Origin: a virus
Strand: one strand, 5' to 3'
Length of the DNA: 15,233 bases
Virus record (IMG/VR): IMGVR_UViG_3300045988_162231
Span: 1 to 15,233 of that record
In this document: piece by piece, positions 1-15,233 of the stretch
Position numbering within the stretch: position 1 is the first letter of the stretch
How the letters are laid out: every line of letters begins with the position of its first letter
Program-made: the position numbers and the translations under genes
Notes under the pieces: model-generated
Database searches by the model: none
Told to the model about the DNA's origin: nothing
The model's input: only the letters and a program-made list of their open reading frames with translations

Positions 1-327
1 AAGAGTTCATTATATAAACTTTTTATGTTCCCCAATTATGTAAACCGAACAAACATACGCAAACCTGCAACCTTAGAGCCGTAACGGTTACAAGGCTTAC
101 AATAACTGGAAATAACTCAAGTTAACATAATATTATTATTATTTTACAAAAAGCCTAAAAGCCTAGAGCCCCAAGGGATAGAGCGAGTTAACAAAATACA
201 AATAAGAAGTTTACATAAAACTATATTATGTAAACTAAAGTATATTATGTAAAGCCAATGTATTACATTTGTAATATTTATTTTTACTCTTTTTATTGAC
301 TTTTATCATTTTTTGTTATAATATAGG
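1..327. repeat. Left inverted terminal repeat (327 bp) of a linear genome; presumed protein-primed replication origin
   Basis: 1-327 is the exact reverse complement of 14907-15233, compared block by block. Identity stops at 328 (tat versus aaa). The window begins and ends exactly at the repeat. It contains arrays of short direct and inverted repeats and a promoter. Confidence 0.95.
296..322 (+). promoter_or_regulatory. ITR-embedded early promoter, left arm (extended -10)
   Basis: Perfect extended -10 TGtTATAAT (314-322). TTGACT lies at 296-301, but the spacer is only 15 nt, which is suboptimal. The predicted transcription start at about 328-330 coincides with the ITR boundary. No other promoter-like sequence precedes the first + strand gene at 399. 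Confidence 0.55.
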
Positions 328-398
328 TATAGTCGATAGGGTAACCTAATCGAAAATATATAGGGTTGTGACCGAACACAAGAAGGGAAGTAATACAA

Positions 399-812
399 AT
401 GGCTAATAAGTATGAGGTAAAAGTTAACGAAAAAAAAGGAAGTTGCGATAATGCACTTTTTGAAAAAATGGCAATGAAAGGTGATATTACTGCAACAAAA
501 CTATCTGAAGTATTAGGACAAGTAGTACATATTGTAGGATATGCAAGTTGTACTATTACAACAGAAGATAAGACTTTTGATATTAATTATTTTGATACAG
601 AAGAATTTGGACTAATAAGTTCTGGTAGCGAAATATTTTATGAAAGTGTAAAGGACTATTTTGAAAAAGTAGAAGAAGTAAGACTTACAGAAGTAAAAAC
701 TAAAAAAGGTAAGACATATAAAGCCGTTCCAATTTTAGATAAGAAAACAACAAACAAAGAAGAAACTACAAAGAAGGAAGAAGAAACAACAAACGACGAA
801 TTATCTTTTTAA
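399..812 (+). CDS. Putative single-stranded DNA-binding protein (phi29 p5-like), 137 aa
   Basis: ATG at 399 follows GAAGGGAAG (382-390). It is the first gene after the ITR promoter and lies directly upstream of the terminal-protein and polymerase genes. A compact core is followed by a K/E/T-rich tail ending NDELSF, resembling the acidic-aromatic C-terminal tip of bacterial SSBs. There is loose by-eye similarity to the recalled phi29 p5 (INYFDTEEFGLISSGSEIFYESV.. versus TTIFAADGSLYSAISKTVAEA..). Confidence 0.5.
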   Translation: MANKYEVKVNEKKGSCDNALFEKMAMKGDITATKLSEVLGQVVHIVGYASCTITTEDKTFDINYFDTEEFGLISSGSEIFYESVKDYFEKVEEVRLTEVKTKKGKTYKAVPILDKKTTNKEETTKKEEETTNDELSF

Positions 813-833
813 TTTGTAGGGAGTTGACAGTAA

Positions 834-1403
834 ATGGCTAATAAAAAAATTCCAATGACACATGCAAAGGTGTCATTGTTTAATGAAATGAAGAAGTTAG
901 CAAAAAGAGCTAATCAACGTATGTTAAGACTAGAACGACTTACTGGAATGACTGGCTCATTTGCTACTAAACAATTATATGACTATTTAGATAATGGAGT
1001 ATTACAAGCTATTACACCAAAGGGTAGAGTAGCTGTTAAAAAATCTTATTCTATAGATGAAATGAATTCAATTATAAAAGCCTTAAAAGATTTTATGAAT
1101 GATGTATCTACTACCCCTCAAGTAAGAAAATTAGTAAAAGAATATTCGGAACGTATAGGAAAGCCTATTGATATTGAAAGAGCTAATACAATATATCAAA
1201 TTGATACTAATTATAAATGGATATATGAATATTACGAGAGTGATTTTTGGGATATTGCAAGAGAAAGTGTTGTTGAAAATTGGTCGCTTGACGACTGGTT
1301 GGATAAAATACCAGCTAATGCAAGTAAAGAAATGGTAGTTGATGAAGAAATGAGATTAAAGCTTGAAAATTTATATACTTATACGAGGGATACAAAAATT
1401 TGA
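834..1403 (+). CDS. Putative terminal protein (replication primer), 189 aa
   Basis: It lies immediately upstream of the protein-primed polymerase and is translationally coupled to it, as in phi29 genes 3 and 2. The N-terminus is basic (KKLAKRANQRMLRLERL), like the phi29 TP N-terminal DNA-binding region. The C-terminal half is acidic and aromatic. GGGAG (819-823) sits 10 nt before the ATG. The call rests on position and composition only. Confidence 0.5.
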   Translation: MANKKIPMTHAKVSLFNEMKKLAKRANQRMLRLERLTGMTGSFATKQLYDYLDNGVLQAITPKGRVAVKKSYSIDEMNSIIKALKDFMNDVSTTPQVRKLVKEYSERIGKPIDIERANTIYQIDTNYKWIYEYYESDFWDIARESVVENWSLDDWLDKIPANASKEMVVDEEMRLKLENLYTYTRDTKI

Positions 1404-3514
1404 TACATTGGTTAGAATATGAAGGACACATACCAAAAATCAAAGGAAAACGTAATAGGTTTGATAATACAATATATACATTTGATATAGAAACTACTTC
1501 TTATATTATACTAAATGGTAAACAAATGAATACTAAAAAATATTTGAAGTTATCTGATAAAGAAAAAGAACAATGCAAATTTTATGCTTGTATGTATATT
1601 TGGCAATTCGGAATAGACGATAAAGTTTATTATGGAAGAACTTGGGAAGAATTATATCATTTTTTAGAACGTATTGAATGGTTTGCTACAGATGTTAAAA
1701 AATATGTATTTGTACATAATTTAGGTTTTGAATTTCAGTTTTTAAGAAATTATTTTACTTTTTCTGATGTATTTGCAAGAAAAAGTCATAAAGTAATTAA
1801 AGCTACTATGAATGAATTTAATTTTGAATTTAGGTGTAGTTTATTTATGACGAATTTGCAACTTAAAAAACTACCAGATGTTTATAATTTACCAGTAGAA
1901 AAATTAGTAGGTGATTTAGATTACAATAAAATTAGACATTATGAAACAAAATTATCTGATGAAGAATTACATTATTGTGAGAATGACTGTCTGGTTGTAT
2001 ACGAATATATTAAAAAAGAGCTTGAGCAATACGAAACAGTAAAAAATATTCCTTTAACATCAACTGGACACGTAAGACGAGAACTTAAAGATACAGTTCG
2101 AACAAACTATCCATATAGAAATAAAGTTAGAAAAAGTATAAATACTGATGGACATATTTATAATTTACTTATTAAGGCATTTGCTGGGGGTTATACGCAC
2201 GCAAATTGGTTATATACAAATGAGATAGTAAAAGACATTACAAGTTTTGATTTTACGAGTTCTTATCCTTACGTAATGGTAACACATAAGTTCCCAAGTC
2301 GAACTTTTAGAAAATGCAATATAAAAAATAGAAGTCAAATGTTAAAATCTATGGCATATTTATTAGTAGTACGTTTTACAGATATAAGTTGTAAGTATTT
2401 CAATAATTTTATTAGTCAAAATAAATGTACAAAAATTAGGGGCGCTAAATTTGATAATGGTAGAATTATTGGAGCAAAAGAAATAGAAATCGTACTAACT
2501 GATGTTGATTTTTATTTTATTTTAGCTACTTATAGTTGTGAATACGAAATTCTAGAAAGTTATTATTCTAAATATGATTATTTGCCAAAAGATTATATTA
2601 ATTTTATTTTAGATAAATATGTTACTAAAACAAAGTATAAAGGAATTGAAGAAAAAAAGCTAGAATATAATTTAGAAAAAGCAAAATTTAATAGCTTATA
2701 TGGTATGACAGTTACTAATAATATTAAAGATATAGTAGTTTTTGATAATGAGGTTGGCTGGTCAGAATTAAAAATGACAAATGATGAAATAATATCAAAA
2801 TTAGAAAAAGAAAAAAAGGACGGCTTTTTGTCTTTTAGTTATGGTGTTTGGGTTACTGCTTGGGCTAGATATAATCTATTAACTAACGTAATAAAACAAG
2901 ATAAGTTCTGTGTTTATTGTGATACTGATAGTATGAAACTAAAAAAAGGTTTTGACATAAGCTATATAGACGAATATAACAAAAAAGTAATAGAAAAAAT
3001 AAAAGTAGCAAGTAAAGAATTAGAAATAGACATAGACAAATTTAAACCAAAAGATAGTAAAGGAAAAGAACATATTATAGGCTTATTTGATTTTGACGGA
3101 CACTATGAAGAATTTATAACACAAGGGGCTAAAAAATACGCATATACAAAATATATAGATAAATCTAAAATTAATGATAGTATGAACGTATTAAAAGTAA
3201 AAGATGATACGGCATTAATACTTGAAATAACGGTCGCTGGAGTTCCAAAACAAGGGGCTAAAGCACTTAAAAGTTTAAAAGATTTTAAAGACGATTTTGT
3301 ATTTGATTTTAAGTATACAAATAAAAATTTACTTATATATAATGATGAAATGAAACCGTTTGAGCTAACTGATTATAAAGGAAAAACAAGAACAGTTACA
3401 GATAAATATAGTTGTGTTTTAATTCCTACGACTTATGTGTTAGGAAAATCTGAGGAATACGCAAATTTACTTTCAGATGAAAGTTCAGCAAGAGCAATAT
3501 ATAATGAGGAGTGA
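1400..3514 (+). CDS. Protein-primed family-B DNA polymerase, 704 aa
   Basis: Motifs read directly from the translation: ExoI FDIETTS, ExoII HNLGFEFQFL, ExoIII YCENDCLVVYEY, motif A DFTSSYPYVM, motif B KAKFNSLYGM, motif C YCDTDSMKL, KxY GAKKYAY. These parallel the phi29 polymerase motifs. The only in-frame start upstream of ExoI is TTG at 1400, with GAGGGA at 1385-1390. This start overlaps the upstream stop codon (ATTTGA). Confidence 0.95.
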   Translation: MIHWLEYEGHIPKIKGKRNRFDNTIYTFDIETTSYIILNGKQMNTKKYLKLSDKEKEQCKFYACMYIWQFGIDDKVYYGRTWEELYHFLERIEWFATDVKKYVFVHNLGFEFQFLRNYFTFSDVFARKSHKVIKATMNEFNFEFRCSLFMTNLQLKKLPDVYNLPVEKLVGDLDYNKIRHYETKLSDEELHYCENDCLVVYEYIKKELEQYETVKNIPLTSTGHVRRELKDTVRTNYPYRNKVRKSINTDGHIYNLLIKAFAGGYTHANWLYTNEIVKDITSFDFTSSYPYVMVTHKFPSRTFRKCNIKNRSQMLKSMAYLLVVRFTDISCKYFNNFISQNKCTKIRGAKFDNGRIIGAKEIEIVLTDVDFYFILATYSCEYEILESYYSKYDYLPKDYINFILDKYVTKTKYKGIEEKKLEYNLEKAKFNSLYGMTVTNNIKDIVVFDNEVGWSELKMTNDEIISKLEKEKKDGFLSFSYGVWVTAWARYNLLTNVIKQDKFCVYCDTDSMKLKKGFDISYIDEYNKKVIEKIKVASKELEIDIDKFKPKDSKGKEHIIGLFDFDGHYEEFITQGAKKYAYTKYIDKSKINDSMNVLKVKDDTALILEITVAGVPKQGAKALKSLKDFKDDFVFDFKYTNKNLLIYNDEMKPFELTDYKGKTRTVTDKYSCVLIPTTYVLGKSEEYANLLSDESSARAIYNEE

Positions 3515-3520
3515 TGAGAT

Positions 3521-3715
3521 ATGAGTAAGCAAAAAGATTTACAATTTATACAAGGTTTTAGTAAAATATCTATAACTAGTATATGCGAAAAAAATAATAT
3601 ATGTAAACAAAATATTTTTTCTGGAACTGCGTCCGAAAAAAATTTAGCAAAAGTAAAAGAAGAAGTACAAAAAGAATTTGCTAAATTGTATTTACAAGGT
3701 GATGACAATGAGTAG
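3521..3715 (+). CDS. Hypothetical 64-aa protein, possibly a small helix-turn-helix DNA binder
   Basis: ATG at 3521 lies 9 nt after GAGGAG (3506-3511). The ORF is tightly packed between the polymerase and ATPase genes. The segment ISITSICEKNNICKQNIFSG has an HTH-like pattern, but I recognise no family. Confidence 0.55.
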   Translation: MSKQKDLQFIQGFSKISITSICEKNNICKQNIFSGTASEKNLAKVKEEVQKEFAKLYLQGDDNE

Positions 3716-4787
3716 AACACAAATACATTATAATTTGGATAAAATTGATAATTTAAATGCCAATTATAATTTGATATATGGTGAAAAATCTAACGGAAAA
3801 AGTTATCAAGTTAAGCACAAAAAAGGTATTGAAAAATACTTAAAAACGGGTAGAAGGTTCATCTTAATGAGACGTTGGGAAAGTGACTTAACTTCGGCTT
3901 GGATAGAAAGTTATTTTTCGGACGTAGATATACAAAAGCTAACTAACAATAAATATAATTGTGTAACTAAATTTAGAAATGAATTATATCTAACTACAAT
4001 GACAGAAGATTACAAGAAAAAAAGAGGAGAAAAAATAGGATATGCAATACCTATTTCACTTGAACAACGTTATTCTGGAGCAAGTTTTTTAGATGTAGAC
4101 GATATAATTGTCGAAGAGTTTATGAGTAGAGGTATTTATATTGTAAATGAGCCAAGCAAATTAATGACATTTTATAGTACAGTTGACAGAAAAAGAGGAA
4201 CTACTAAACTTTGGCTTGTAGGTAATACTGTAAGTAGAGTATGTCCGTATCTTAAAGAATGGGGTTTATATGATATAATGAAAAATCAAAAACAAGGTGA
4301 TATAAACACTACTATTATACATAATGAAGAAAATGACGTAAAAATTGCTGTAGAATATTGTAGGTCATCTGGTGGTAAAACAATGGCTATAGGACAAGCA
4401 AAAAATATGATAGACAAAGGCGAATGGCAAACAGACATACAACCAAAACTTCCAAAAAGTTATAAGGCTTATGATATATTATTTAGGTTTGGTTTTCAGT
4501 ATCAAAGTTTTAAATTTATATGTGAGTATTTAGTAGACAAGCAAGAAAAGAAATATCCTTGTTGGTTTATATATCCATACAATAAAAATTTTGAGGATAA
4601 CTTTATTGTTTTTTCTGATGAAATAAAATTAAGTCCTTATTGGCAACGTGATATATATAATATAACAATAAAAAACGAAAAACTTAAACATTTATTTCAA
4701 AGTTTTAGGGAAGATAAAATTTTTTTCAGTTCTGATATGTGTGGTACGGACTTTAAACAAGTAATTGATTTTAATATTAAGAGGTGA
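3708..4787 (+). CDS. DNA encapsidation (packaging) ATPase, phi29 gp16-like, 359 aa
   Basis: Walker A is GEKSNGKSY and the Walker B-like motif is DDIIVEEF. By-eye alignment to the recalled phi29 gp16 gives IGARGIGKSY/FIYVRRY/GWAIPLS versus YGEKSNGKSY/FILMRRW/GYAIPIS. I moved the start from the track position 3678 to ATG 3708, which has AAGGTGA at 3696-3702 and a 5-nt spacer. This start overlaps the upstream ORF by 8 nt. Confidence 0.9.
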   Translation: MSRTQIHYNLDKIDNLNANYNLIYGEKSNGKSYQVKHKKGIEKYLKTGRRFILMRRWESDLTSAWIESYFSDVDIQKLTNNKYNCVTKFRNELYLTTMTEDYKKKRGEKIGYAIPISLEQRYSGASFLDVDDIIVEEFMSRGIYIVNEPSKLMTFYSTVDRKRGTTKLWLVGNTVSRVCPYLKEWGLYDIMKNQKQGDINTTIIHNEENDVKIAVEYCRSSGGKTMAIGQAKNMIDKGEWQTDIQPKLPKSYKAYDILFRFGFQYQSFKFICEYLVDKQEKKYPCWFIYPYNKNFEDNFIVFSDEIKLSPYWQRDIYNITIKNEKLKHLFQSFREDKIFFSSDMCGTDFKQVIDFNIKR

Positions 4788-4793: not shown

Positions 4794-4922
4794 ATGCTTG
4801 AATATTTACAAGAATTATTACAAGATATACAAAATATCGATATTAAAGAACAAAAGCAAAAATCTTTTGCATTGGAAACTGCTATTGATATTTTATTAAA
4901 ATTAAGAAATGAGAAAGGGTGA
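4794..4922 (+). CDS. Hypothetical 42-aa helical protein (not in the ORF track)
   Basis: ATG at 4794 follows AGAGGTGATAA (4780-4790). Translation: MLEYLQELLQDIQNIDIKEQKQKSFALETAIDILLKLRNEKG. Its TGA stop (4920-4922) is embedded in the Shine-Dalgarno sequence of the next gene. It exactly fills the gap between two confident genes. Confidence 0.5.
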   Translation: MLEYLQELLQDIQNIDIKEQKQKSFALETAIDILLKLRNEKG

Positions 4923-4927: not shown

Positions 4928-6595
4928 ATGGCAACATTACATAGTGAAATAATTTTATGTAGAAATATTAAACTTGATAAAAATTATATAAATGTATTAA
5001 GCTATTCAACTAATCAAATGCTTGATTTATGTAAACGTAATGCAATAGCAACCGCTAGTGACTATTCTTTTATTAGACAACATAATAATAATATATTTAC
5101 TGGTTTTACATACGAACAATGCTTACAAGCCAATTATATAGCTTTTCAAAATAAAGATTATAGTAACAAATGGTTTTTTGCATTTATTGATGAAGTAAAT
5201 TATTCAGGTGAAAGTAACACAGAAATTCGTTATACTATTGACGCTTGGTCTACATTTTTTGATGATTGGCAAAAACAACCTTGTTATATAACAAGACAAC
5301 ACGTAAACGATGATACAATAGGTGCAAATTTAATAGACGAAAATTTAAACGTTGGGGAAGTTGAGGCAATAAACGTAGTAAAAGACGACAGTTTAGACAA
5401 TACATATGGTTATTATATAATTGTAGGTTCTACTTGGGATATAGGGGATAATAACAACCCATCTAAACAAGTAGTAGGTTCTAGTCTATATAATGGTTTA
5501 ATATCTGCTGAAAAACTTTTTGTTATTTCTGGGGCATTTGGTGATAGTATTGTAGACGCTGTTAAAAATTTACAACTATTTCTTTTTCAATCTGCTGAGG
5601 ACGGACACTTAGCCGACGTAAGAAACGTATATATAGTACCTAATTTTTGTATAAGTCCAGCCGACTTACAATTACACGAAAAAACTACAGGAGAATATAC
5701 TTGTACATATTATACTTTAAATACTGGAGTAGATATACCTAGTGCAAAATTACAAGCAACTTGTACTACAAATTATAGAGGATATAAGCCAAAAAATAAT
5801 AAATGTTTTATTTATCCATATCATTATCTATTTGTTACTAACAATAATGGTAATAATAATATATACAAATATGAAAATTTTTCAAACTTTTTTAGTCCAG
5901 AATTTCAAATAAATTTGATAATGATGCCTGGGTGTTCTGGTAGAGTAATTCCACAAAATTATAAAGGTGTATCGGATAACGTTGACGAGAGCTTACCACT
6001 TGCAAAATATCCAATATGTGAATGGAATTGCGACGCATATATTATTTGGCTATCTGCTAATGCTGTAAATATTCCTACTCAAATTATGGGAGTTACTAAT
6101 AATTTAAGTGGTCAAGTTCAAAATGGTAATTTTTCTATAACTCCAGGAGCAAATGGTGGTATAGGTTCAACTGCTGGTTCTACAGCAAGTAATATTATAA
6201 ATGTTGCTGGAAATATTGCAAATATAATAGGACAATTTTATTCTGCGTCTTTACTTCCTAGTATTCAAGGTGGTAACAATACTGGTGATGTAAATTTTGT
6301 AAGTAATGCAAATAATATATTGATATATGAATATAAAGTAAAAGACCAATATTTAAAAGTTATTGACGAATATTTTACAAGATTTGGTTATAGAATAAAT
6401 GAAGTTACTATGCCAAATATTATAGGTAGACGTAATTGGAATTATATAGAAATACCAAGTTCCGAAAGTATTGGTTATGGAACAGTTCCTTCGCAATATA
6501 TGGAACAAATTAATAATGCTTGTCGTAAAGGTGTAACTATTTGGCATAATCACGATAATTTAGGAAATTTTAATTTGGATAATTCTATAGTATAA
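4928..6595 (+). CDS. Tail knob / distal tail tube protein, phi29 gp9-like, 555 aa
   Basis: By-eye alignment to the recalled phi29 gp9: ANYIAFQNKDYSNKWFFAFIDEV versus ASYIMFQNADYGNKWFYAFVTEL. The C-terminus gives FTRFGYRINEV..NYIE...GVTIWHNHDNLGNF versus FHKYGYKINRV..NYVQ...GITLWHTDNIGNY. There is a Gly/Ala/Ser/Ile-rich internal loop. I moved the start from the track GTG at 4919 to ATG 4928 (GAAAGGGTGA at 4913-4922). Confidence 0.9.
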   Translation: MATLHSEIILCRNIKLDKNYINVLSYSTNQMLDLCKRNAIATASDYSFIRQHNNNIFTGFTYEQCLQANYIAFQNKDYSNKWFFAFIDEVNYSGESNTEIRYTIDAWSTFFDDWQKQPCYITRQHVNDDTIGANLIDENLNVGEVEAINVVKDDSLDNTYGYYIIVGSTWDIGDNNNPSKQVVGSSLYNGLISAEKLFVISGAFGDSIVDAVKNLQLFLFQSAEDGHLADVRNVYIVPNFCISPADLQLHEKTTGEYTCTYYTLNTGVDIPSAKLQATCTTNYRGYKPKNNKCFIYPYHYLFVTNNNGNNNIYKYENFSNFFSPEFQINLIMMPGCSGRVIPQNYKGVSDNVDESLPLAKYPICEWNCDAYIIWLSANAVNIPTQIMGVTNNLSGQVQNGNFSITPGANGGIGSTAGSTASNIINVAGNIANIIGQFYSASLLPSIQGGNNTGDVNFVSNANNILIYEYKVKDQYLKVIDEYFTRFGYRINEVTMPNIIGRRNWNYIEIPSSESIGYGTVPSQYMEQINNACRKGVTIWHNHDNLGNFNLDNSIV

Positions 6596-6633
6596 AAAAA
6601 TAAACTAGAGGTGATAACCTCTAGTTTTAGTTT
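6594..6633. terminator. Bidirectional intrinsic terminator at the junction of the two convergent arms
   Basis: Perfect 10-bp stem AAACTAGAGG (6602-6611) / CCTCTAGTTT (6618-6627) with loop TGATAA. An A7 run (6594-6600) gives a 7-U tract for - strand transcripts. TTTTagTTT follows the hairpin on the + strand. It lies between the last + gene (stop at 6595) and the last - gene (stop at 6714). Confidence 0.8.
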
Positions 6634-6713: not shown

Positions 6714-7559
6714 TTATTGACCAGGTGTAATGTCTGATTGTTCAAAGGCTTGCAATAAATATAAAGAATTCCAGAAGAAAACTCTGACCTCTTTTGTTGA
6801 ACTATCGATAGCAAACCAAGTATCAATTTCAATAGTTCCATCAGTTTTAATTGTTATATTTGCAGTATCTGTTCTAGTAAAATTTTGTCCATAACACGTT
6901 AAAGCAACAGTATTAATAGTTATGTCTTGTGTTGGTCTTAATGGTGTATTTAATAATTTGATTTTACGTGCTAGCCCACCATCATCTGGATTATGTATTT
7001 GTAAAATACCATAAAGCTTAAAAATTGATTTAGTATCATCATATACAAGTGTCAATCCACTATTTCCAAAATCATTTCCACACGCAGTACCATTTACAAT
7101 ATTTCCTGTACTAGAATTAAAAATCATAGAATTTTTTAGATTAAATTTATCCAATTCATTAAGTGCTTTATTTGCATTTGTATTAGCATTTTGTGCTGTT
7201 GAATTAGCTGAACTTGCTAAACCGTTTGCTGTATTTGCTGTTGATAATGCTGTTTCAGCATTTTGTTTTGCTGTACTTGCGTTGTCATTTGCTGTTGTTG
7301 CTAAACTTAAAGCATTTGTTGCATTAGTATTTGCTCCATTTGCTGTTGTGTTTGCTTGATTAGCTGTTTCTAATGCTTGTGTTGCTGAACTATTTGCATT
7401 TTCTGCGTTTGTTTCTGCACTCTGTGCTTTACTGTCATTTGCTTTCATTTGTGTGTCAATTTTAGACATTGCTTGATTAAAATCACCTAACCAAGAAGGT
7501 ACGTCATTTGCTACAAATTGTGGTAGCTCATAATTTGGTGTTTTATTTGTTGAACTCAT
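6714..7559 (-). CDS. Tail fibre / receptor-binding protein with Ala/Asn/Thr-rich stalk, 281 aa
   Basis: AAGGAG sits 8 nt before the ATG at 7559. The N-terminus NYELPQFVANDVPSWLGDFNQAMSKID is typical of Firmicute phage fibre N-termini. About 95 aa follow of periodic A/N/T/S low complexity (..TANQANTTANGANTNATNAL..), probably a coiled-coil stalk. The protein ends in a globular beta-rich C-terminal domain. It is the last gene of the structural operon. Confidence 0.65.
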   Translation of the reverse strand: MSSTNKTPNYELPQFVANDVPSWLGDFNQAMSKIDTQMKANDSKAQSAETNAENANSSATQALETANQANTTANGANTNATNALSLATTANDNASTAKQNAETALSTANTANGLASSANSTAQNANTNANKALNELDKFNLKNSMIFNSSTGNIVNGTACGNDFGNSGLTLVYDDTKSIFKLYGILQIHNPDDGGLARKIKLLNTPLRPTQDITINTVALTCYGQNFTRTDTANITIKTDGTIEIDTWFAIDSSTKEVRVFFWNSLYLLQAFEQSDITPGQ

Positions 7560-8499: not shown

Positions 8500-9243
8500 T
8501 TAAGGTATCATATAAAATAAACTTTCTAAGTCTTTGTAAATTAATGAATATATACTTTGTATATTTTGTTGCATTTCCTTTAATATAGATATTTTATCGG
8601 CTGGGCTACGTTCTATTATTTCATTATATTTGTTGGTATCCTCTGAATTACTACTACCTTTAGAATTAGAACTATCTGTACTTGTTGCGTTGTTTGTATC
8701 GTAATTATAATTAGTAACATATTTACCGTCGCGAACATTTTCAAGCTGATTTTGAGGTGTGTTGCTCTCTCTTCTATCTGATATATTATTAGTATTAGAA
8801 CTTGAACTATTTTCTAATGTATTACTTGCTGTATTTATTCTATATTCGTCACCGTATCGTTTAGAAGTTTCGCCGTCATTAAAAATATCCCAATTTTGCA
8901 ACGCGTCAAACATTTTGTTATAAATTGGCATTATTTCGTTTAACTTCACATCTAGTTGTATTTTAAATGCTACAAATGTTTCGTACCCAATTCGACGCAT
9001 AAGAAAATGATTCAATATATTTGTTTCAAATTTATCCTTATCAATATTTTGGCTTAAAGGATAATTAAAATCAAAAACTCTTGTGTGTCCTTCTTTAGCT
9101 AAATCTTTTATTTTTACTTGTTCATTTTCTGCTTTACCAAAATTAAGCATTGAATCTAATATTTCATATATAGTTGGTGGTCTATCATCTGTAGGTGTGA
9201 ATATTGGGTTTACAAAAAAGTAACTATTAAAAAATGGATACAT
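8500..9243 (-). CDS. Lower collar protein, phi29 gp11-like, 247 aa
   Basis: It lies immediately downstream of the connector gene and is coupled to it by a 1-nt TAATG overlap. Size and position match phi29 gp11. It contains a motif LNHFLMRRIGYETFVAFKIQL, followed by a Ser/Asn-rich disordered stretch. Confidence 0.7.
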   Translation of the reverse strand: MYPFFNSYFFVNPIFTPTDDRPPTIYEILDSMLNFGKAENEQVKIKDLAKEGHTRVFDFNYPLSQNIDKDKFETNILNHFLMRRIGYETFVAFKIQLDVKLNEIMPIYNKMFDALQNWDIFNDGETSKRYGDEYRINTASNTLENSSSSNTNNISDRRESNTPQNQLENVRDGKYVTNYNYDTNNATSTDSSNSKGSSNSEDTNKYNEIIERSPADKISILKEMQQNIQSIYSLIYKDLESLFYMIP

Positions 9244-10109
9244 TATTCGTCAACCCCTTCCATATCAAAATTTTTGTCATCTTCGGGTTCTTCTATTGTA
9301 GAAGGTACCCCGTCATAATAACTAACTTCTATATTCATATTGAATTTTTTGTTTATTTGCTGTACTGCACGTTGTCTAGGCTCAAAACGACTAAATCTAC
9401 TTGCTATAGTTCCACCTTGCATTGCGTTTATTTCATCTTTTATATTACGCTCTTTTTTCTGATATGATAAATTTGAAATACCTATAAGCCTTAAAAATTC
9501 ATTCCATATCTTTTCTTGGTGTTGGTCTATTTTATCAGCTACAAATGGTGCTGGCTCTAATACAAGTGTCGTATCGTCCAAGTCTAAATTGTCATAGCTA
9601 ATTACAGTTTCTGCATTACTATCAACGTTATTCACTAAGTCTTGTATACTTTTTAAGTTTTCTGTTTTTGTCTTCCAAAAACGAGGTGTACGTTGCTGAC
9701 TTATATTTATGTCTGATGTTCTTGTGTTCATTGCGATACGTTCTGCATATTGAATAATATCTGCTAATAATGGATAATGTCCGTTATTATCGTACATTAT
9801 AACAAACTCACCATAATTCAATTTTTTGTTATATCTAGTATTTGAATATACTTGTATTTGTTTTGGTCTACCGTAAACGTCTAAGCCACCAAAATTGGTA
9901 TAAGGTAAGGCAAGCAAACCTAAAATGTCATCATAGAAAAATGCTATACTACCATTAATTACAAGCTGTGCGTTTAAATATGATACGTCAATAAATTCTG
10001 GAAGTCCTTTGAATTCAAAAACATTTTCGGCAAGTGATAAAAGTTGTCTACGATACATTAAATACGTTTTGTAATTATTAAGCTGACTATTAATAAAACG
10101 TTTTTGCAT
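9243..10109 (-). CDS. Head-tail connector / portal (upper collar), phi29 gp10-like, 288 aa
   Basis: By-eye alignment to the recalled phi29 gp10: PAPFVADKIDQHQEKIWNEFLRLIGISNLSYQKKERNIKDEI versus [42 protein letters not shown]. Also FVIMYDNNGHYP versus VVIYNNDMAFP, and INISQQRTP versus VNQNAQKTP. Confidence 0.92.
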   Translation of the reverse strand: MQKRFINSQLNNYKTYLMYRRQLLSLAENVFEFKGLPEFIDVSYLNAQLVINGSIAFFYDDILGLLALPYTNFGGLDVYGRPKQIQVYSNTRYNKKLNYGEFVIMYDNNGHYPLLADIIQYAERIAMNTRTSDINISQQRTPRFWKTKTENLKSIQDLVNNVDSNAETVISYDNLDLDDTTLVLEPAPFVADKIDQHQEKIWNEFLRLIGISNLSYQKKERNIKDEINAMQGGTIASRFSRFEPRQRAVQQINKKFNMNIEVSYYDGVPSTIEEPEDDKNFDMEGVDE

Positions 10110-10130: not shown

Positions 10131-10160
10131 AAAATATAAAGGTAGCAAAATGCTACCTTT
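10131..10160 (-). terminator. Hairpin attenuator/terminator just after the capsid gene
   Basis: On the - strand: AAAGGTAGC (10160-10152), loop AUUUU, GCUACCUUU (10146-10138), then AUAUUUUU. It begins 1 nt after the capsid stop and precedes the connector Shine-Dalgarno sequence. It is probably leaky, raising capsid/scaffold transcript abundance relative to downstream genes. Confidence 0.55.
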
Positions 10161-10161
10161 A

Positions 10162-11535
10162 TTATTCAGCAATAGTAATAGTAGCTGTTCCAGTTTTAGT
10201 ATTATTAAATATTGAAGTTGCTGTAACTGTTACTGTTGTTGCTGTTGACTCTTTAGCTACTTCTAATACACCGTTTTGATTTATAGAAACCCCTTTGCTC
10301 TCACTGTCACTATCTATAGACCAAGCAACTGCTTTATTTGTAATACCAGTTACTTCAACAACTGCTGTAAGTACAAGGCTTTGACCTTTTGTAACTGTAG
10401 CTGTAGAAGGATTTACAGTAACACTTGTTACTGTGCTTGCGTCTTTTGTAAATGCCAAGCATTGCTCAAATGGAGAAGTTGCAAATATTCTCCAGCTGTG
10501 TAACCACATAGTTCTTGATAATGTTTCTGGATTTCTGAATTCTGTAGACATTGTATCTGCTGTGTTGTCTAATGCGTAGTAATAATCTTTGAAGAAATTA
10601 TCACTTATGATTAAACCTACAGTATTTTTAAGTCTTGTAAGTTCATTTTCTGTAAAGGCTGTATAAGCATTACCTAATAATTTTGATAGTCTATCCCAGT
10701 CATTGTTTCCAAAACCGTCTATTAATGCTAATTTTGTACGCATTTCTGCATCATTTCTAAAGTAAGAAGTTGCTAATACTTTTGTAGACATTTGAGCTTC
10801 AAAACCAGTAGAAACAATAGTTCTTTGTCTATCAAATGGTGTTGCAAGTCTTAGCCCAGCTGGGTTATAGTTTGGACTTAAAAATGTCATATTATTAGAA
10901 TATTCTTTCATTATTGCAACGTTATCTCTTGAGTCGTTTGTGTCAAAGTCTTCTATTGTAACACTTGGAATTGTACCATTGATTAAACGTCTTTGAACTT
11001 GGTATTTATCAACTATATATCTATCATATACATAAGATTTTCTTAATGCTGTGTAAACTGCTTGTATTAAATCATATACACCAGTTTCATTATAAAAAGC
11101 TAATGCTATTTCTTGGTCATTTACTGTTGCCTTATAAAATTTTTGGAAATTTATTTCGTGCATATAGTTTAGAACATTTGGAACTTGTTGCTCTAAGAAG
11201 TGAGTAGGGTTATTCATATATTGATTGTAGTCTTCTGCTTCTATTAAATCTACAATCATTTCACGAACTGTTTGTCCGTATCTAATTTGTCCTTGGTTTG
11301 TGAAATCTTCCCAAGGGTTAGCCCACGCGTCACTTACGATTAAAGTCAATGCGATTACATTAACTGCATTTAAAAAAGCATTTTTGTATCTTGTATTAGA
11401 TACAATTAAATCACCTATTTTTTGTATGTCGGCTCCTTGTTGTGGTAAGTCTATTACTTCTTGTAACTCTGGACTTACTTGTGCCATATAATTTAAAAGT
11501 TTGGCACTACTTTTAGTTGCTAATGTTTTTGCCAT
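10162..11535 (-). CDS. Major capsid protein, phi29 gp8-like, with C-terminal Big_2 Ig-like domain, 457 aa
   Basis: The C-terminus VTSVTVNPSTATVTKGQSLVLTAVV...AVAWSIDSD...VSINQNGVLEV...ATITI is a typical Big_2 pattern, as in phi29 gp8. The N-terminal region shows by-eye similarity to gp8. I moved the start from the track position 11574 to ATG 11535 (AAGGAGGAAT, 7-nt spacer), which removes an overlap with the scaffold gene. Confidence 0.9.
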   Translation of the reverse strand: MAKTLATKSSAKLLNYMAQVSPELQEVIDLPQQGADIQKIGDLIVSNTRYKNAFLNAVNVIALTLIVSDAWANPWEDFTNQGQIRYGQTVREMIVDLIEAEDYNQYMNNPTHFLEQQVPNVLNYMHEINFQKFYKATVNDQEIALAFYNETGVYDLIQAVYTALRKSYVYDRYIVDKYQVQRRLINGTIPSVTIEDFDTNDSRDNVAIMKEYSNNMTFLSPNYNPAGLRLATPFDRQRTIVSTGFEAQMSTKVLATSYFRNDAEMRTKLALIDGFGNNDWDRLSKLLGNAYTAFTENELTRLKNTVGLIISDNFFKDYYYALDNTADTMSTEFRNPETLSRTMWLHSWRIFATSPFEQCLAFTKDASTVTSVTVNPSTATVTKGQSLVLTAVVEVTGITNKAVAWSIDSDSESKGVSINQNGVLEVAKESTATTVTVTATSIFNNTKTGTATITIAE

Positions 11536-11539
11536 TTTT

Positions 11540-11842
11540 TTATTCCTCCTTGTCAGTATCTTTAAATATATCAACTTCCTCGACTTTTTCCTCTTCTTTA
11601 GGTTCGTCGATTTTTTCTTCTGTTTCTTTTTTTTCTGTTCCTAAAAATCTATTTTTGTATTTATTCTTAATGTCATCATATTTTGTTTTTAAGTCCTCAT
11701 TTTCTGCTTTTAAAGTTTCAACTTCTGAATTGTCTATTATATCCATACTATCTTCTACATCTTCTAATAATGCTATTTGTACGTCTTCATCTGTTACAGT
11801 TTGTACAATTTTTTGTTTAAGTTCATCTTTACTTAGTTTCAT
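11540..11842 (-). CDS. Scaffolding protein, phi29 gp7-like, 100 aa
   Basis: It is small, very acidic and coiled-coil, and lies directly upstream of the capsid gene. LKAENEDLKTKYDDIKNKYKNRFLGTEKKE parallels the recalled phi29 gp7 [27 protein letters not shown]. I moved the start to ATG 11842 (GGAAGGGGTGA, 5-nt spacer). Confidence 0.8.
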   Translation of the reverse strand: MKLSKDELKQKIVQTVTDEDVQIALLEDVEDSMDIIDNSEVETLKAENEDLKTKYDDIKNKYKNRFLGTEKKETEEKIDEPKEEEKVEEVDIFKDTDKEE

Positions 11843-12197
11843 TCTCTTCACCCCTTCCAACTTTTAAAATTTCTGACAATTTACCTAAATGAATACCCGC
11901 CTTTGTTAAATTCTCAAAAATTGATAATATTTCCATTATTAATATATATATTGCAATAGATTTCATACAGAAATTAAAACCAAAAGTACTATCTAAAATA
12001 AAACCTAAACCAAGCAATAATAATAATAATACTTTATGCAATAAACCTGTTCTCATCTTTGTTGTGTCAACATCGTTATTAATAACGGCTTGTATAAATC
12101 CTGTTATAATATCAGCTAAACTGAAAACTAGTGGGGTTAATAATTGCCAAAACATACTAACGAAATTAAGGTTTGCTATAATATTTTCAATATCCAT
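11829..12197 (-). CDS. Holin, phage_holin_4_1 (TcdE / LL-H) family, 122 aa
   Basis: Family pattern: ..DIITGFIQAV....D.TKMRTGLLHKV (membrane segment) ...IMEILSIFENLTKAGI.., with 3 predicted hydrophobic segments. ATG at 12197 follows AGAGGTGAG. It is the first gene after the promoter at 12232-12260. Its last 14 nt overlap the scaffold gene. Confidence 0.85.
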   Translation of the reverse strand: MDIENIIANLNFVSMFWQLLTPLVFSLADIITGFIQAVINNDVDTTKMRTGLLHKVLLLLLLGLGFILDSTFGFNFCMKSIAIYILIMEILSIFENLTKAGIHLGKLSEILKVGRGEENETK

Positions 12198-12231
12198 TTA
12201 TCTCACCTCTCTTTCGTATTTACTATAAAAA

Positions 12232-12260
12232 TTATTAGCATAAAATTTTTGTTTTGTCAA
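12232..12260 (-). promoter_or_regulatory. Sigma-A-type promoter of the holin-structural (late) operon
   Basis: On the - strand: TTGACA (12260-12255), a 17-nt spacer ending in TGc, then TAATAA (12237-12232). It lies directly after a terminator, about 35 nt before the holin ATG. Confidence 0.6.
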
Positions 12261-12290
12261 CATAAAAAAGACAGTTTAAAACTGTCTTTT
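12261..12290 (-). terminator. Intrinsic terminator overlapping the 3' end of the M23 peptidase gene
   Basis: On the - strand: AAAAGACAGU (12290-12281), a loop containing the TAA stop (12278-12276), ACUGUCUUUU (12275-12266), then UU. This gives a 10-bp stem and a 6-U tract. Confidence 0.75.
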
Positions 12291-12845
12291 ATTTCGTAAT
12301 TTTCGAAAATAGATTACCCAAGGAAAACGTTTATTTACTTCTTGTACTGGTATTGGTTCGGGTGGAATTATACTTCCGTCGTATTCAATTATAGTATTAT
12401 CGACATTTGGAATTCCTAATATTGTACAAGGGTTTAAAAATGTTGAACAATTCCAACTTTGTGTAACTGAACATTCTAAATGTAGATGTATTCCAGTTAC
12501 TTTACCAGTCGCTCCCATTCTACCAATAATAGTATTTAAATCTACACTGTCACCTACATTTACTTGCAGGCTTCCTTCAACCATATGACAATATCTCCAA
12601 TAATGACCTTCTTCATCAAGTATTTGAGCTTGAACTCCTAACGAGTGTGAAGTAGATGTATTTATATATATAACTCTACCTTTTTTAACTGGATATAAAT
12701 AAGGGTTTCGTTCTGTATCACCATATGGTGCAAAGTCTGTTCCAGTGTGCCAACCGCACGAATAGCGACTATCTTTTACCCCAAAAGGGTAAGTAATTAT
12801 TGAAGTTGAATGTATAGGACTATTATTCATCTTAATAGTTGACAT
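12276..12845 (-). CDS. M23 (LytM/lysostaphin-type) peptidoglycan endopeptidase, 189 aa
   Basis: Zinc-site motifs HTGTDF (HxxxD) and GIHLHLE (HxH), plus GRMGATGKVTG. The C-terminus is cationic and aromatic: KRFPWVIYFRKLRNKRQF. It is coupled to the endolysin gene by a 1-nt TAATG overlap. Confidence 0.85.
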   Translation of the reverse strand: MSTIKMNNSPIHSTSIITYPFGVKDSRYSCGWHTGTDFAPYGDTERNPYLYPVKKGRVIYINTSTSHSLGVQAQILDEEGHYWRYCHMVEGSLQVNVGDSVDLNTIIGRMGATGKVTGIHLHLECSVTQSWNCSTFLNPCTILGIPNVDNTIIEYDGSIIPPEPIPVQEVNKRFPWVIYFRKLRNKRQF

Positions 12846-13678
12846 TATAGACCCCCATTATATTTGACAAAACCTAGTTTTCGGTTTGTTACTTCACCTT
12901 TTGAATTTGTTACAAAATAACAAACTATATATTTTCCGTCTTTGATTCCATAACAGTCCGCATATTCTCTAGGATATATAGTACCTATTTTTTGAGTACA
13001 AGCTAAATCTTGATATACTGGTTCATCTGTACTTCCATTTCTCCAAGTTTTTGGCATATCGAAATCACCCCCAACATTATTTGAATTACTATTGTTAGAA
13101 TTTGAAACATCAATATAACTGTAATTCATATCAACTCTACCAGATATTCCACTAATTGAACCATCACTTGTATATTGCCATATATCAACTCGAAAATCTA
13201 CAGTATAATTAGTTTTATTCCATTCAGCAAGCCATATCTTATAATTAAGTAATTGGTTTATATCTAATTTATTAGTAAACCAATTCTTATTGGCATATAT
13301 TCCAGTATTTTCAAAACTTTGACAAAATTGGATTGCTAAATTAGTCATAGATTTTTTGTCTATATAACTTATTTGACTGTCTTCTAAATCTAAAAATATT
13401 GGGTATTCAAAACTTTTACCTTGTATTTTATTTTTTACCCAATTAATAGCACTTGTCATAGCCTTTGATGTTTCAACATAGCTATAAACATAGCAACCTA
13501 CTTTAAGACCTACACTTTTGGCTGAATTGTAATAACTTTCAAATTTACTATCTAGTGTGTGATTTTCTTTGTTGCCTATCCAACCTAGTCTAAGGATAAC
13601 AAAATCAATACCATTTTGTTTTAATAAATTAAAATCTACATTTCCATTATGTGTAGATAAGTCAAGACCTTTTGTCAT
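12845..13678 (-). CDS. Endolysin: GH25 muramidase with C-terminal SH3b-like cell-wall-binding domain, 277 aa
   Basis: GH25 pattern: GLDLSTHNGNVDF..GIDFVILRLG..GCYVYSY..PIFLDLE..IWLAEW..DIWQYTSDGSISGISGRVDMN. An NSNNSNSNN linker follows. The ~70-aa C-terminal domain (TWRNGSTDEPVYQD...GKYIVCYF...KLGFVKYNGGL) resembles clostridial phage lysin binding domains. AGAGGTGATAA precedes the ATG at 13678. Confidence 0.88.
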   Translation of the reverse strand: MTKGLDLSTHNGNVDFNLLKQNGIDFVILRLGWIGNKENHTLDSKFESYYNSAKSVGLKVGCYVYSYVETSKAMTSAINWVKNKIQGKSFEYPIFLDLEDSQISYIDKKSMTNLAIQFCQSFENTGIYANKNWFTNKLDINQLLNYKIWLAEWNKTNYTVDFRVDIWQYTSDGSISGISGRVDMNYSYIDVSNSNNSNSNNVGGDFDMPKTWRNGSTDEPVYQDLACTQKIGTIYPREYADCYGIKDGKYIVCYFVTNSKGEVTNRKLGFVKYNGGL

Positions 13679-13770
13679 TTTATCACCTCTTTACAAAAAT
13701 TAATATATATGATATATTTGTTTCGACCAATTTCCATTTGTTGGTCTCCTTAAATTTTATTATATATAAC

Positions 13771-13800
13771 AAAAAAATACAAGGGTTTACCTTGTATTTT
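13771..13800 (-). terminator. Intrinsic terminator ending the right-arm early cluster
   Basis: On the - strand, immediately after the TAA at 13803-13801: AAAAUACAAGG (13800-13790), loop UAAAC, CCUUGUAUUUU (13784-13774), then UUU. Confidence 0.7.
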
Positions 13801-14043
13801 TTATTTTAGTAAAGTTTTTATTAAATCATTTATACTCTTTTTATGACTATCAATTACTTGGTCATCTAAGTTATTTTCTTTAATAACTTTAGCTAAGATA
13901 GATAATACTATATCAACATCAACTATATGTTCTTTCACTAAAGAATCAATTATTGTTCCAAATTCATTAATAATACTTTTTCTATTTCCTGTAATTTCAC
14001 AAACTGTACATTTTTTATTTTCATTCCATTTTGCTCTAATCAT
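13801..14043 (-). CDS. Hypothetical early protein, 80 aa
   Basis: ATG at 14043 overlaps the upstream stop by 1 nt (TAATG), with AAGGGGT 8 nt upstream. I recognise no family. Confidence 0.6.
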   Translation of the reverse strand: MIRAKWNENKKCTVCEITGNRKSIINEFGTIIDSLVKEHIVDVDIVLSILAKVIKENNLDDQVIDSHKKSINDLIKTLLK

Positions 14044-14348
14044 TATATATCATACCCCTTTTCTTTTAATATTTTAGATAATGCTTTAAATTTTAATTTT
14101 ACTATATCAGGTATTGGCTGAGAATTTAATATTTCATTATATCCGTCCATTAATTTATCATATATATTTTTTTCAATTTGTATATAATTAGATATTAAAT
14201 CATATAAATTATTTATAATTTCATCTGACATTTGAGGGATTCTTTCCTTAAACCCTGTACTTTCTATCATTAAATTTCTTTTTTCTAATACTTTTATTAT
14301 TTTTTCTTCTTTCTCAGTTCTATTCAATTTTGCTTTTTTATCTTCCAT
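14043..14348 (-). CDS. Hypothetical early protein, 101 aa, helical
   Basis: I moved the start from the track GTG at 14357 to ATG 14348 (GAAGGGTGA plus a 5-nt spacer, the same Shine-Dalgarno geometry as other genes here). I recognise no family. Confidence 0.6.
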   Translation of the reverse strand: MEDKKAKLNRTEKEEKIIKVLEKRNLMIESTGFKERIPQMSDEIINNLYDLISNYIQIEKNIYDKLMDGYNEILNSQPIPDIVKLKFKALSKILKEKGYDI

Positions 14349-14353
14349 ATTTT

Positions 14354-14668
14354 TCACCCTTCTATATAATATAAGTTTAAAAATGATTTGTTTGTTATTT
14401 TACCATTAAAATTGTATTCTTTTTGTATATTTTCTTTTGCTGGCTTTAATGCTGTTGTCATCATATTTTCAATGTTCCTTGGACTTACAAAATATAATTC
14501 GGCAAGTTCTTTATAAAGGTCTTTTATAGTATATTTTGGTAGCATTGTTTTACCTTTTGTATATAGCATTAAGGCTGTATTCCAGATTATAAAACCTTTG
14601 CTATTAATATTAAAACCTAAGTTCTTTAAATAATCTGTATTTTCTAAATACTCTTTTGTTTTGCTCAA
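14354..14668 (-). CDS. Stand-alone Spo0A C-terminal (effector/DNA-binding) domain-like protein, 104 aa
   Basis: By-eye alignment to the recalled B. subtilis Spo0A C-domain: IGVPAHIKGYLYLREAI / [28 protein letters not shown] / KPTNSEFI versus LGFNINSKGFIIWNTAL / TIKDLYKELAELYFVSPRNIENMMTTAL / KITNKSFL. No receiver domain is present. I set the start to TTG 14668 (AAAGGGGTGA plus a 5-nt spacer) rather than the track GTG at 14677, which lies inside the Shine-Dalgarno sequence. Confidence 0.6.
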   Translation of the reverse strand: MSKTKEYLENTDYLKNLGFNINSKGFIIWNTALMLYTKGKTMLPKYTIKDLYKELAELYFVSPRNIENMMTTALKPAKENIQKEYNFNGKITNKSFLNLYYIEG

Positions 14669-14685
14669 TTTTATCACCCCTTTCT

Positions 14686-14714
14686 ATTATATCATATTTT
14701 ACAATACTATACAA
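14686..14714 (-). promoter_or_regulatory. Possible internal promoter with phased direct repeats upstream of the Spo0A_C-like gene
   Basis: On the - strand: TTGTAT (14714-14709), a 17-nt spacer ending in TGa, then TATAAT (14691-14686). It overlaps two GTATTGT repeats spaced 10 bp apart. The predicted start would leave only a ~13-nt leader, so the call is uncertain. Confidence 0.35.
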
Positions 14715-14719
14715 TACAT

Positions 14720-14881
14720 TTACATATATTTATCTATTAAATTATACATTATATATTTATATAAATTAAACTTAAATATCCTATAACTTATTAATTGTAT
14801 TGTCATAAATATAATAAAACCTATTAATAAATAAAATATTATAATTCCTGCATCAAATAATAAAATTGCTAATTTTTCCAT
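14720..14881 (-). CDS. Small membrane peptide, 53 aa (not in the ORF track)
   Basis: ATG at 14881 lies 9 nt after AGGAAAGGGG and is the first ORF after the right ITR promoter. Translation: MEKLAILLFDAGIIIFYLLIGFIIFMTIQLISYRIFKFNLYKYIMYNLIDKYM. It has one clear hydrophobic helix followed by a basic/aromatic tail. An open frame of 53 codons is unusual in DNA this AT-rich. Confidence 0.45.
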   Translation of the reverse strand: MEKLAILLFDAGIIIFYLLIGFIIFMTIQLISYRIFKFNLYKYIMYNLIDKYM

Positions 14882-14906
14882 ATATTATTACCCCTTTCCT
14901 ATATTT

Positions 14907-15233
14907 CCTATATTATAACAAAAAATGATAAAAGTCAATAAAAAGAGTAAAAATAAATATTACAAATGTAATACATTGGCTTTACATAATATACTTTAGT
15001 TTACATAATATAGTTTTATGTAAACTTCTTATTTGTATTTTGTTAACTCGCTCTATCCCTTGGGGCTCTAGGCTTTTAGGCTTTTTGTAAAATAATAATA
15101 ATATTATGTTAACTTGAGTTATTTCCAGTTATTGTAAGCCTTGTAACCGTTACGGCTCTAAGGTTGCAGGTTTGCGTATGTTTGTTCGGTTTACATAATT
15201 GGGGAACATAAAAAGTTTATATAATGAACTCTT
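14907..15233. repeat. Right inverted terminal repeat (327 bp)
   Basis: It is the exact reverse complement of 1-327. Confidence 0.95.
14912..14938 (-). promoter_or_regulatory. ITR-embedded early promoter, right arm (mirror copy of 296-322)
   Basis: Its sequence is identical to the left ITR promoter because it lies within the perfect ITR. It faces inward toward the - strand early cluster. The first Shine-Dalgarno sequence and ATG follow within ~30 nt of the ITR boundary. Confidence 0.55.

Follow-up and report, generated by a model that had tools for sequence, protein, structure and literature searches.

The virus record IMGVR_UViG_3300045988_162231 of IMG/VR consists of 15,233 nucleotides (nt) of DNA, analysed here over positions 1 to 15,233 (the window), and the question it raises is whether so short a sequence, with matching repeats at its two ends and genes resembling those of phage phi29, represents a whole virus genome and, if so, of what kind. 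An earlier note, made from the sequence alone, had read it as an entire but unusually small genome of a linear, protein-primed phage. The window is very probably the complete genome (to within a few terminal nt) of a virulent phi29-type podophage that belongs to a large, uncultivated clade of the human gut and rumen, with a host that is most likely a low-GC member of the Bacillota, probably of the Clostridia. The central claim of the note is upheld by the inverted repeats, by a DNA polymerase of the protein-primed family B type (PolB) and by full head, tail, packaging and lysis modules.

General features of the genome

As in phi29-like protein-primed podophages, the genome is a linear double-stranded DNA bounded by inverted repeats. 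It is 15,233 bp long with no ambiguous bases and, in line with the AT-richness noted earlier, has a GC content of 27.9%. The 20 open reading frames (ORFs) make 92% of it coding, and they are read from the plus strand between nt 399 and 6595 and from the minus strand from nt 14881 down to 6714. Shine-Dalgarno sequences of the GGAGG/GGTGA type, also anticipated, precede most genes. Gene labels were accepted when matches exceeded Pfam gathering scores, with PHROGs profiles as a second source, and relatives (cited below by contig labels such as L021) were taken from IMG/VR, from JGI/ENA metagenomes and from Logan assemblies. The repeats, gene families, promoter and terminator sequences and relatives rest on direct sequence evidence. 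Within the 15,233-bp window there is no integrase and there are no other genes for integration, partition, maintenance or lysogeny; no host DNA flanks it on either side. The source of the genome is evidently the human gut.

Terminal repeats and completeness

Perfect inverted terminal repeats (ITRs) of 327 bp lie exactly at both ends, as the earlier note had stated, and the identity of the two arms breaks off abruptly at base 328. A perfect inverted repeat of this length at both window ends cannot be the product of chance.

nt 1-327, no strand: left ITR, exact reverse complement of nt 14907-15233, containing the presumed origin of replication as well as a repeat array and an early promoter
nt 14907-15233, no strand: right ITR, exact reverse complement of nt 1-327
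nt 8-45, plus strand: end-proximal block, candidate origin recognition site, containing TTCCCCAA at 28-35 and conserved in divergent relatives

Whether these repeats mark physical ends is a separate matter, as they might instead stem from an assembly artefact (an inverted chimera or a repeat-bounded fragment) or bound a piece of an excised prophage or larger element. The sequence is apparently metagenome-derived, its close relatives being metagenome contigs, many of which break inside the ITR. Assemblers based on de Bruijn graphs merge an inverted repeat of this type into one sequence, so that a collapsed repeat would be expected to yield identical arms, and neither the perfection of the arms nor the shared end base counts as independent evidence. 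The relatives nevertheless speak strongly for true ends. Diverged ITRs recur at homologous positions in independent assemblies (281-290 bp in L027, 186 bp in L162 and 97 bp in L037), and are also present in the isolate Clostridium phage HM2 (about 170 bp) and in the gut contig MT836125 (at least 100 bp). The 137-bp ITR of L029 is not a collapsed repeat, because its arms are only 83% identical. The first 45 nt or so are 92-96% conserved in L021 and L024, though these genomes are about 70% identical overall; the end block itself is 96% identical in L021 (about 72% genome-wide) and 92% identical in L024, at an equal distance from the contig end. In L027, L162, L163 and L204 a motif like TTCCCCAA occurs at a distance of 30-40 nt from the contig ends. 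Two assemblies, the window and L021, begin on the same homologous base, and a third begins 5 bases further out.

Searches of metagenomes returned more than 6,000 homologues of the polymerase and 681 of the first gene, g01. Among the best 120 matches of each of these searches the longest contigs were 14-16 kb, and none of these matches was embedded in a larger or a bacterial contig. A scan of IMG/VR with the 14-mer ATTATGTTCCCCAA was swamped by chance matches and proved uninformative. Since the relatives share ITRs, conserved ends and a ceiling of 14-16 kb, and the gene set is complete and free of integration genes, the window is best regarded as a unit-length linear genome, and an artefactual or excised origin of its ends is highly improbable.

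Replication genes

The left arm begins with three genes that would make up the replication module.

nt 399-812, plus strand: g01, candidate early protein resembling a single-stranded DNA-binding protein (SSB), 137 amino acids (aa), proposed from its position, composition and acidic C-terminal tip
nt 834-1403, plus strand: g02, candidate terminal protein (TP), 189 aa, directly upstream of the polymerase gene and overlapping its start by 4 nt
nt 1400-3514, plus strand: g03, protein-primed-type family B DNA polymerase, 704 aa

The polymerase is the most securely identified of these. It matches PF03175 at 47 bits (cut-off 25.8) and phrog_1907 (E = 5e-58), and its sole sequence match in the PDB is the phi29 DNA polymerase (1XHX, E = 1e-8). 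The alignment retains Exo I-III, motifs A, B and C, and KxY, with spacers of 136 aa and 72 aa where phi29 has TPR1 and TPR2, a correspondence in alignment length only.

We infer that g02 is the TP because of its position and size, its overlap with the polymerase gene, its helicity and basic N-terminus, its conserved Ser and Tyr residues, and a profile link to gp02 of astrithr, a phage of Salmonella in which this ORF likewise precedes the polymerase gene. The AlphaFold2 model of g02 is all-helical, with a long basic N-terminal helix and a mean predicted local distance difference test (pLDDT) score of 86.8. The link to astrithr gp02 is weak (hhalign E = 3.7e-5, probability 71%), and a still weaker alignment was obtained with the corresponding ORF of Amedibacillus phage AD70P3; the two alignments pass through a common (A)NxRLxRLE helix. 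The Astrithrvirus ORF is regarded as the TP counterpart in a 2024 review (PMC11476376). Five residues (T37, S92, S136, Y181 and Y183) are invariant across 24 homologues of g02. In a Foldseek search of BFVD all proteins returned were uncharacterised and came from metagenomic 'Podoviridae' and 'Tectiviridae'.

The g01 family is very conserved in the clade. The protein has a predicted beta-rich core, a low-complexity linker rich in Lys, Glu and Thr, and a conserved (D/E)(D/E)L(P/S)F tip (nt 790-812) that resembles the protein-recruiting C-terminal tip of bacterial SSB. No Pfam, PHROGs or fold match to g01 was found, hhalign comparisons with phi29 p5 and the SSB of Eggerthella phage LE1-1 were negative, and the AlphaFold2 model was poor (pLDDT 61), giving meaningless Foldseek matches.

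By homology with phi29, a covalently linked TP, most likely g02, would prime the 704-aa polymerase at either end of the genome, and the origin would be the conserved block near the terminus of each 327-bp ITR. Strand displacement would follow, with g01 probably coating the displaced strand.

Packaging, structural and lysis genes

The remainder of the left arm and most of the right arm specify packaging, virion and lysis proteins.

nt 3521-3715, plus strand: g04, 64 aa, conserved in the clade
nt 3708-4787, plus strand: g05, gp16-type DNA packaging ATPase (PF05894 at 59.7 bits; phrog_2150), its start picked to match the gene calls of relatives
nt 4794-4922, plus strand: g06, 42 aa, called in relatives
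nt 4928-6595, plus strand: g07, gp9-type tail knob (PF16838, PF20934; phrog_2248, E = 6e-46)
nt 6714-7559, minus strand: g08, tail fibre or receptor-binding protein (PHROG tail-fibre families, best E = 1e-12; Alanine_zipper)
nt 7590-8477, minus strand: g09, tail or appendage protein, 295 aa, 31% identical to a hypothetical protein of Clostridium phage CI461P1
nt 8500-9243, minus strand: g10, lower collar, gp11-type (phrog_5472 and phrog_3225, E about 1e-19)
nt 9243-10109, minus strand: g11, connector or upper collar, gp10-type (PF05352 at 131.7 bits)
nt 10162-11535, minus strand: g12, phi29-type major capsid protein (PF25622 at 169 bits)
nt 11540-11842, minus strand: g13, candidate scaffold protein, 100 aa and acidic, proposed from its position upstream of the capsid gene and its composition only
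nt 11829-12197, minus strand: g14, holin (PF05105 at 61.9 bits)
nt 12276-12845, minus strand: g15, M23 metallopeptidase (PF01551), 28% identical to the gp13 region of phage PZA
nt 12845-13678, minus strand: g16, GH25 muramidase endolysin (PF01183 at 91 bits)

The genome thus carries both the gp16-type ATPase and the gp10-type connector, together with the capsid, knob and lower collar of the phi29 type. All phi29 hallmark proteins except the TP, SSB and scaffold were identified by profile, either as Pfam matches above cut-off or through PHROGs. The gene set given in the note is accordingly borne out for PolB, gp16, gp9, gp10, gp11, capsid, fibre, holin and lysins, while its SSB, TP and scaffold are unconfirmed. 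An exact-protein look-up of the connector g11 returned no record. The label of an Ig-like C-terminus for the capsid protein g12 is based on a sub-threshold match to Big_2 (19.6 bits, cut-off 22.8) and on phrog_215.

The genes g08 and g09 form a receptor-binding module. The fibre g08 consists of a coiled coil and a C-terminal domain, and g09 carries several copies of the motif (L/I)TAxEYD(S/N)L, arranged as two diverged 27-aa blocks that are also seen as DNA repeats (nt 7618-7699 and 7822-7903). In L195 a single 688-aa beta-helix tailspike-like protein takes the place of g08 and g09, and two M23 genes take the place of the GH25 and M23 pair. In L183 (CALVSQ010000029.1) the GH25, M23, gp16 and gp9 genes are colinear on a single strand. 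L183 and L195 show that modules are shuffled within the clade.

The lysin g16 had been described as GH25 plus an SH3b-like domain; the first part is confirmed, and residues 203-277 gave no Pfam match, SH3b included. The M23 peptidase g15 is probably a virion-associated or second lysin. During packaging the gp16-type ATPase would drive unit-length TP-DNA through the gp10-type connector, and lysis would be brought about by the holin and the GH25 lysin, probably also with the M23 peptidase.

Evidence against the assignment, and the host

Several observations weigh against reading the window as a complete phi29-type genome from a clostridial host. Firstly, the perfect identity of the arms may be due to repeat collapse during assembly, and the precise ends are in doubt: L158/L019, the contig with 93% identity, begins with 5 bases (TAAAT) that precede base 1 of the window, L027 has ATAT ahead of its own AAGA, and the contigs of relatives end raggedly. 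A few nt may be missing at the ends of the window. Secondly, the TP is not demonstrable. No similarity of g02 to the phi29 TP was found by a PDB profile search, by Foldseek against the PDB (including 2EX3) or by hhalign, and its assignment as TP is a reasonable inference. Thirdly, a prohead RNA (pRNA) was not found: there was no Rfam pRNA match at E <= 1 and no match to any other Rfam family in the window, and no covariation was seen in three ITR variants on either strand. Because pRNA is documented only for Salasmaviridae-type Bacillus phages (PMC11476376), it is not required of the broad phi29-like group. A candidate ITR-encoded RNA, read from an outward promoter-like site at nt 253-225, was rejected, as its folds are ordinary (z = -1.8 and -2.2) and show no covariation. 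Lastly, the evidence for the host is indirect, and one related phage contig was binned with a 'Bacilli' metagenome-assembled genome (MAG).

The host evidence comes mainly from the lysin. The nearest homologues of g16 in bacterial assemblies are in MAGs of uncultured Clostridia or Clostridium of 26-28% GC, at 33-49% identity. In one of these MAGs the match spans the full length of g16, at 41%, and in another a holin homologue lies next to the lysin homologue. The top match to g16 overall (55%) is in another phage of the clade, binned with a 'Bacilli' MAG. Clade relatives also occur in other metagenome collections. A low-GC, probably spore-forming clostridial host is plausible.

Transcription signals in the ITRs and beyond

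The ITRs carry regulatory sequences as well as the presumed origins, and further signals are found along both arms.

nt 9-253, no strand: ATTATGTAAA repeat array of the left ITR, with copies at 9-18, 35-44, 225-234 and 244-253 (plus) and at 122-131 and 210-219 (minus)
nt 14981-15225, no strand: mirror of the ATTATGTAAA array in the right ITR, mirrored from the left ITR
nt 296-324, plus strand: left early promoter, TTGACT followed by TGnTATAAT / TAATAT, directed inward and ending 3 bp before the ITR boundary
nt 14910-14938, minus strand: right early promoter, an identical copy (14938-14910), directed inward
nt 366-381, plus strand: leader hairpin TTGTG-ACCGAA-CACAA, directly 5' of the g01 ribosome-binding site
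nt 6602-6627, no strand: bidirectional intrinsic terminator at the junction of the two convergent arms
nt 10136-10162: terminator-like hairpin at the end of the capsid gene, overlapping its stop codon and lying just ahead of the connector gene
nt 12266-12290: terminator-like hairpin
nt 13772-13802, no strand: terminator that closes the right early operon, after the four right-end early genes

Each ITR contains three exact and three one-mismatch copies of ATTATGTAAA, in both orientations, and all 6 exact copies in the genome lie inside the ITRs. For the 9-mer, allowing at most one mismatch, 14 of 39 matches fell in the terminal 350 nt against 1.8 expected. The ATTATGTAAA repeats are also enriched in the termini of L030, L027, L162 and L204. 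In sequence the array looks like an operator or origin-binding array. As each ITR holds the same strong promoter, of the sigma-A type, two identical promoters would fire inward into the convergent arms.

Terminator-like hairpins are enriched in the genome (11 found, 3.6 expected), and a hairpin equivalent to that at nt 6602-6627 occurs at the arm junction in the relatives examined. The hairpin at nt 10136-10162 fits an attenuation that sets a high ratio of capsid to connector expression. The best promoter match of the genome (11/12) is at nt 12260-12231, by the holin gene g14. A candidate small RNA on the minus strand (nt 6709-6602), made up of a TTGACA-17-TGnTAATAT promoter-like site, an 80-nt spacer and a terminator, would give an RNA of about 80 nt, and was dropped because the spacer is confined to the species group of the window and absent in more distant relatives.

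The stem of the leader hairpin is kept by paired changes in relatives, namely TTGCG/CGCAA in L195, TTGCGT/ACGCAA in L024 and TAGC/GCTG in L032; the hairpin may serve as a translational operator or help to stabilise the mRNA. In the g01 leader of L212, a 94%-related contig, there is a transfer RNA (tRNA)-like gene at 133-223 (Rfam tRNA 38.4 bits, cut-off 29), which ARAGORN did not recognise and which has 36 nt where the model expects an 18-nt anticodon arm. No tRNA was detected in the window, which at about nt 333-356 retains only the 5' part of this gene (GATAGGGTAAC), which points to the loss of about 70 nt in the lineage of the window.

From this layout, with early and late denoting presumed timing, the ITR promoters would drive the left replication and packaging arm (g01, g02, polymerase, packaging ATPase and tail knob) and the right early operon of four small genes including g19. 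Beyond the right early terminator, the lysins, holin, scaffold, capsid, connector, collar and fibres would be expressed with the help of internal promoters and terminators, the late genes being driven by promoters such as that at nt 12260-12231, and the two arms would converge on the bidirectional terminator at nt 6602-6627.

The right early operon and Spo0A

Four small genes lie between the right ITR and the early terminator.

nt 13801-14043, minus strand: g17, early protein, 80 aa
nt 14043-14357, minus strand: g18, early protein, 104 aa
nt 14354-14677, minus strand: g19, receiver-less homologue of the Spo0A DNA-binding domain, 107 aa (PF08769; phrog_24603)
nt 14720-14881, minus strand: g20, hydrophobic early protein, 53 aa

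The Spo0A_C-like gene pointed out earlier is g19, which matches PF08769 at 31.9 bits (cut-off 25) over profile positions 3-72 of 104; its 107 aa leave no room for a receiver domain. Receiver-less Spo0A homologues have been described in gut phages, mainly phages of spore-formers (bioRxiv 10.1101/2023.01.19.524802). The window has only one perfect Spo0A box, starting at nt 4109 inside the ATPase gene, which is the chance level, and at nt 331-354 it has degenerate boxes only (AGTCGAT, AATCGAA), while encoding g19. In L204-L206 and L021/L160 two perfect TGTCGAA boxes, inverted relative to each other, lie a short way downstream of the ITR promoter, and the leaders of L196, L197 and L207 have a single perfect TGTCGAA box. 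L021, the only box-carrying relative checked and so a small sample, lacks a g19 homologue. The paired boxes in a relative without g19 hint at two alternative wirings of the same control.

Phage phi29 ties control of this kind to the sporulation state through host Spo0A and 0A boxes. It is conceivable, though rather unlikely as a whole, that the ITR is a combined origin and regulatory module in which the clade-specific ATTATGTAAA array and the twin promoters are controlled by an early DNA-binding protein of the phage, for which g19 is the most attractive candidate. If true, both early operons, and possibly origin firing, would be coupled to the sporulation state of the host. In a weaker variant of this proposal the ITR would encode a highly divergent pRNA in two copies.

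Relationship to other phages

The earlier note had also considered the genome exceptionally small and possibly a distinct lineage. No megablast match was found among 50,697 deposited phage records, and protein identity to the nearest cultured phages is no higher than 22-37%, which would suit a previously unseen lineage. The size part of this view is refuted by described phi29-like isolates with smaller genomes (astrithr, 11,569 bp; AD70P3, 12,228 bp; CI55P1, 14,205 bp; CI461P1, 14,601 bp), and 15.2 kb is normal for the clade. Likewise, a review by Evseev et al. in 2024 covered 2,115 phi29-related genomes, many of them human-gut genomes of 12-16 kb (PMC11476376), and there are thousands of metagenome homologues and a closely related public gut contig. 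An exceptional, previously unseen lineage is therefore very unlikely, and novelty at the level of lineage is limited.

The closest public sequence is the human gut contig OPDH01001755 (IMG/VR 3300045988_156456), with 93.4% nucleotide identity over 14.0-14.3 kb. It has the same gene order and ITR sequence family as the window, and its proteins are 83-100% identical except for the holin (68%). It differs in lacking the right ITR, in having 5 extra bases at the left end and in that g20 was not detected. Identity multiplied by coverage is about 90%, which under the 95% rule for species places it in the same genus but probably in a different species. Several other samples yielded additional contigs, with 94% identity in g01. 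The window is probably a new species within a known and abundant phage type.

Protein comparisons show the genome to be a mosaic with affinities to two groups. In replication and packaging it is closest to a group with 700-aa polymerases, made up of the gut contig MT836125, Astrithrvirus (Salmonella, 11.6 kb), Acinetobacter phage Phanie, Amedibacillus phages AD70P2/3 (12.2 kb) and Clostridium phage HM2 (17.5 kb). The polymerases are 32-37% identical over their full length and have insertions in common, the ATPase is 30-33% identical to those of astrithr and MT836125, and the ORF upstream of the polymerase has the same (A)NxRLxRLE helix motif. In contrast, no capsid similarity to astrithr or AD70P3 was detectable, and the Gram-negative members of the group have the tail knob split into two genes and lack fibres.

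The affinity of the polymerase, the ATPase and the upstream ORF to this group raises the question of whether the window might be a helper-dependent, satellite-like phage, as Phanie depends on the tail of a helper myophage (PMC11476376). The single full-length gp9 knob, full-size lower collar and fibre proteins of the window, which set it apart from the group of Phanie, and a structural module like that of the autonomous Gram-positive podophages CI461P1 and LE1-1, make this extremely unlikely. A protein-primed linear plasmid or phage-plasmid, which could also have ITRs and PolB and of which phi29-like examples are mentioned in the review (PMC11476376), is scarcely credible, as the window lacks genes for partition, maintenance or lysogeny and spends its coding capacity mostly on virion, packaging and lysis. 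The genome is best taken as that of a virulent podophage in its own right.

The closest structural module is found in CI461P1 and CI55P1 (Clostridium), Hungatella phage CH17P1 and Eggerthella phage LE1-1, deposited as Guelinviridae. Identities are 32-36% for the capsid, 29% for the connector, 27-31% for the lower collar and 25-31% for the tail knob, and CI461P1 matches g09 at 31% and the N-terminus of the fibre at 51%. Like the window, these phages have small genomes and come from the gut or sewage. They differ in replication, as the CI461P1 polymerase gave no tblastn match and that of LE1-1 is 22% identical; their genomes are largely unidirectional, unlike the convergent arms of the window, and there is no nucleotide similarity. 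With regard to Guelinviridae more widely, the capsid matches 30 Clostridium phage records at <60% identity, and LE1-1 and AD70P3, both deposited in that family, show 22-36% identity in a handful of proteins.

The genome provides an ITR-bounded, complete reference for the very abundant, uncultured small phi29-type phages of gut Bacillota. It documents ITRs of hundreds of bp with identical early promoters and a repeat array, a combination of Astrithrvirus/HM2-like replication and CI461P1/LE1-1-like structural modules, and a phage-borne Spo0A DNA-binding domain. The known minimum genome size and the replication mode of tailed phages are unchanged by it.

Compared with phi29 itself, the similarity is low, as the earlier note had judged: identities to phi29/PZA are 23-40% in 8 of the 20 genes, and 23-30% over long alignments (polymerase, gp16, connector and capsid protein). 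Membership of the Salasmaviridae is not indicated, there being no nucleotide match and no match to the TP, SSB or pRNA; p6 and p4 of phi29 likewise have no recognisable homologue in the window. The ITR of phi29 is 6 bp long against 327 bp, its early-left, late and early-right layout contrasts with inward transcription from both ends, and, unlike in phi29, the ATPase and tail knob genes of the window are on the replication arm. The parts held in common with phi29 and PZA are the ITR as such, a protein-primed PolB, gp16, gp9, gp10, gp11, a gp8-type capsid protein with an Ig-like C-terminus, a holin and an M23-containing lysin.

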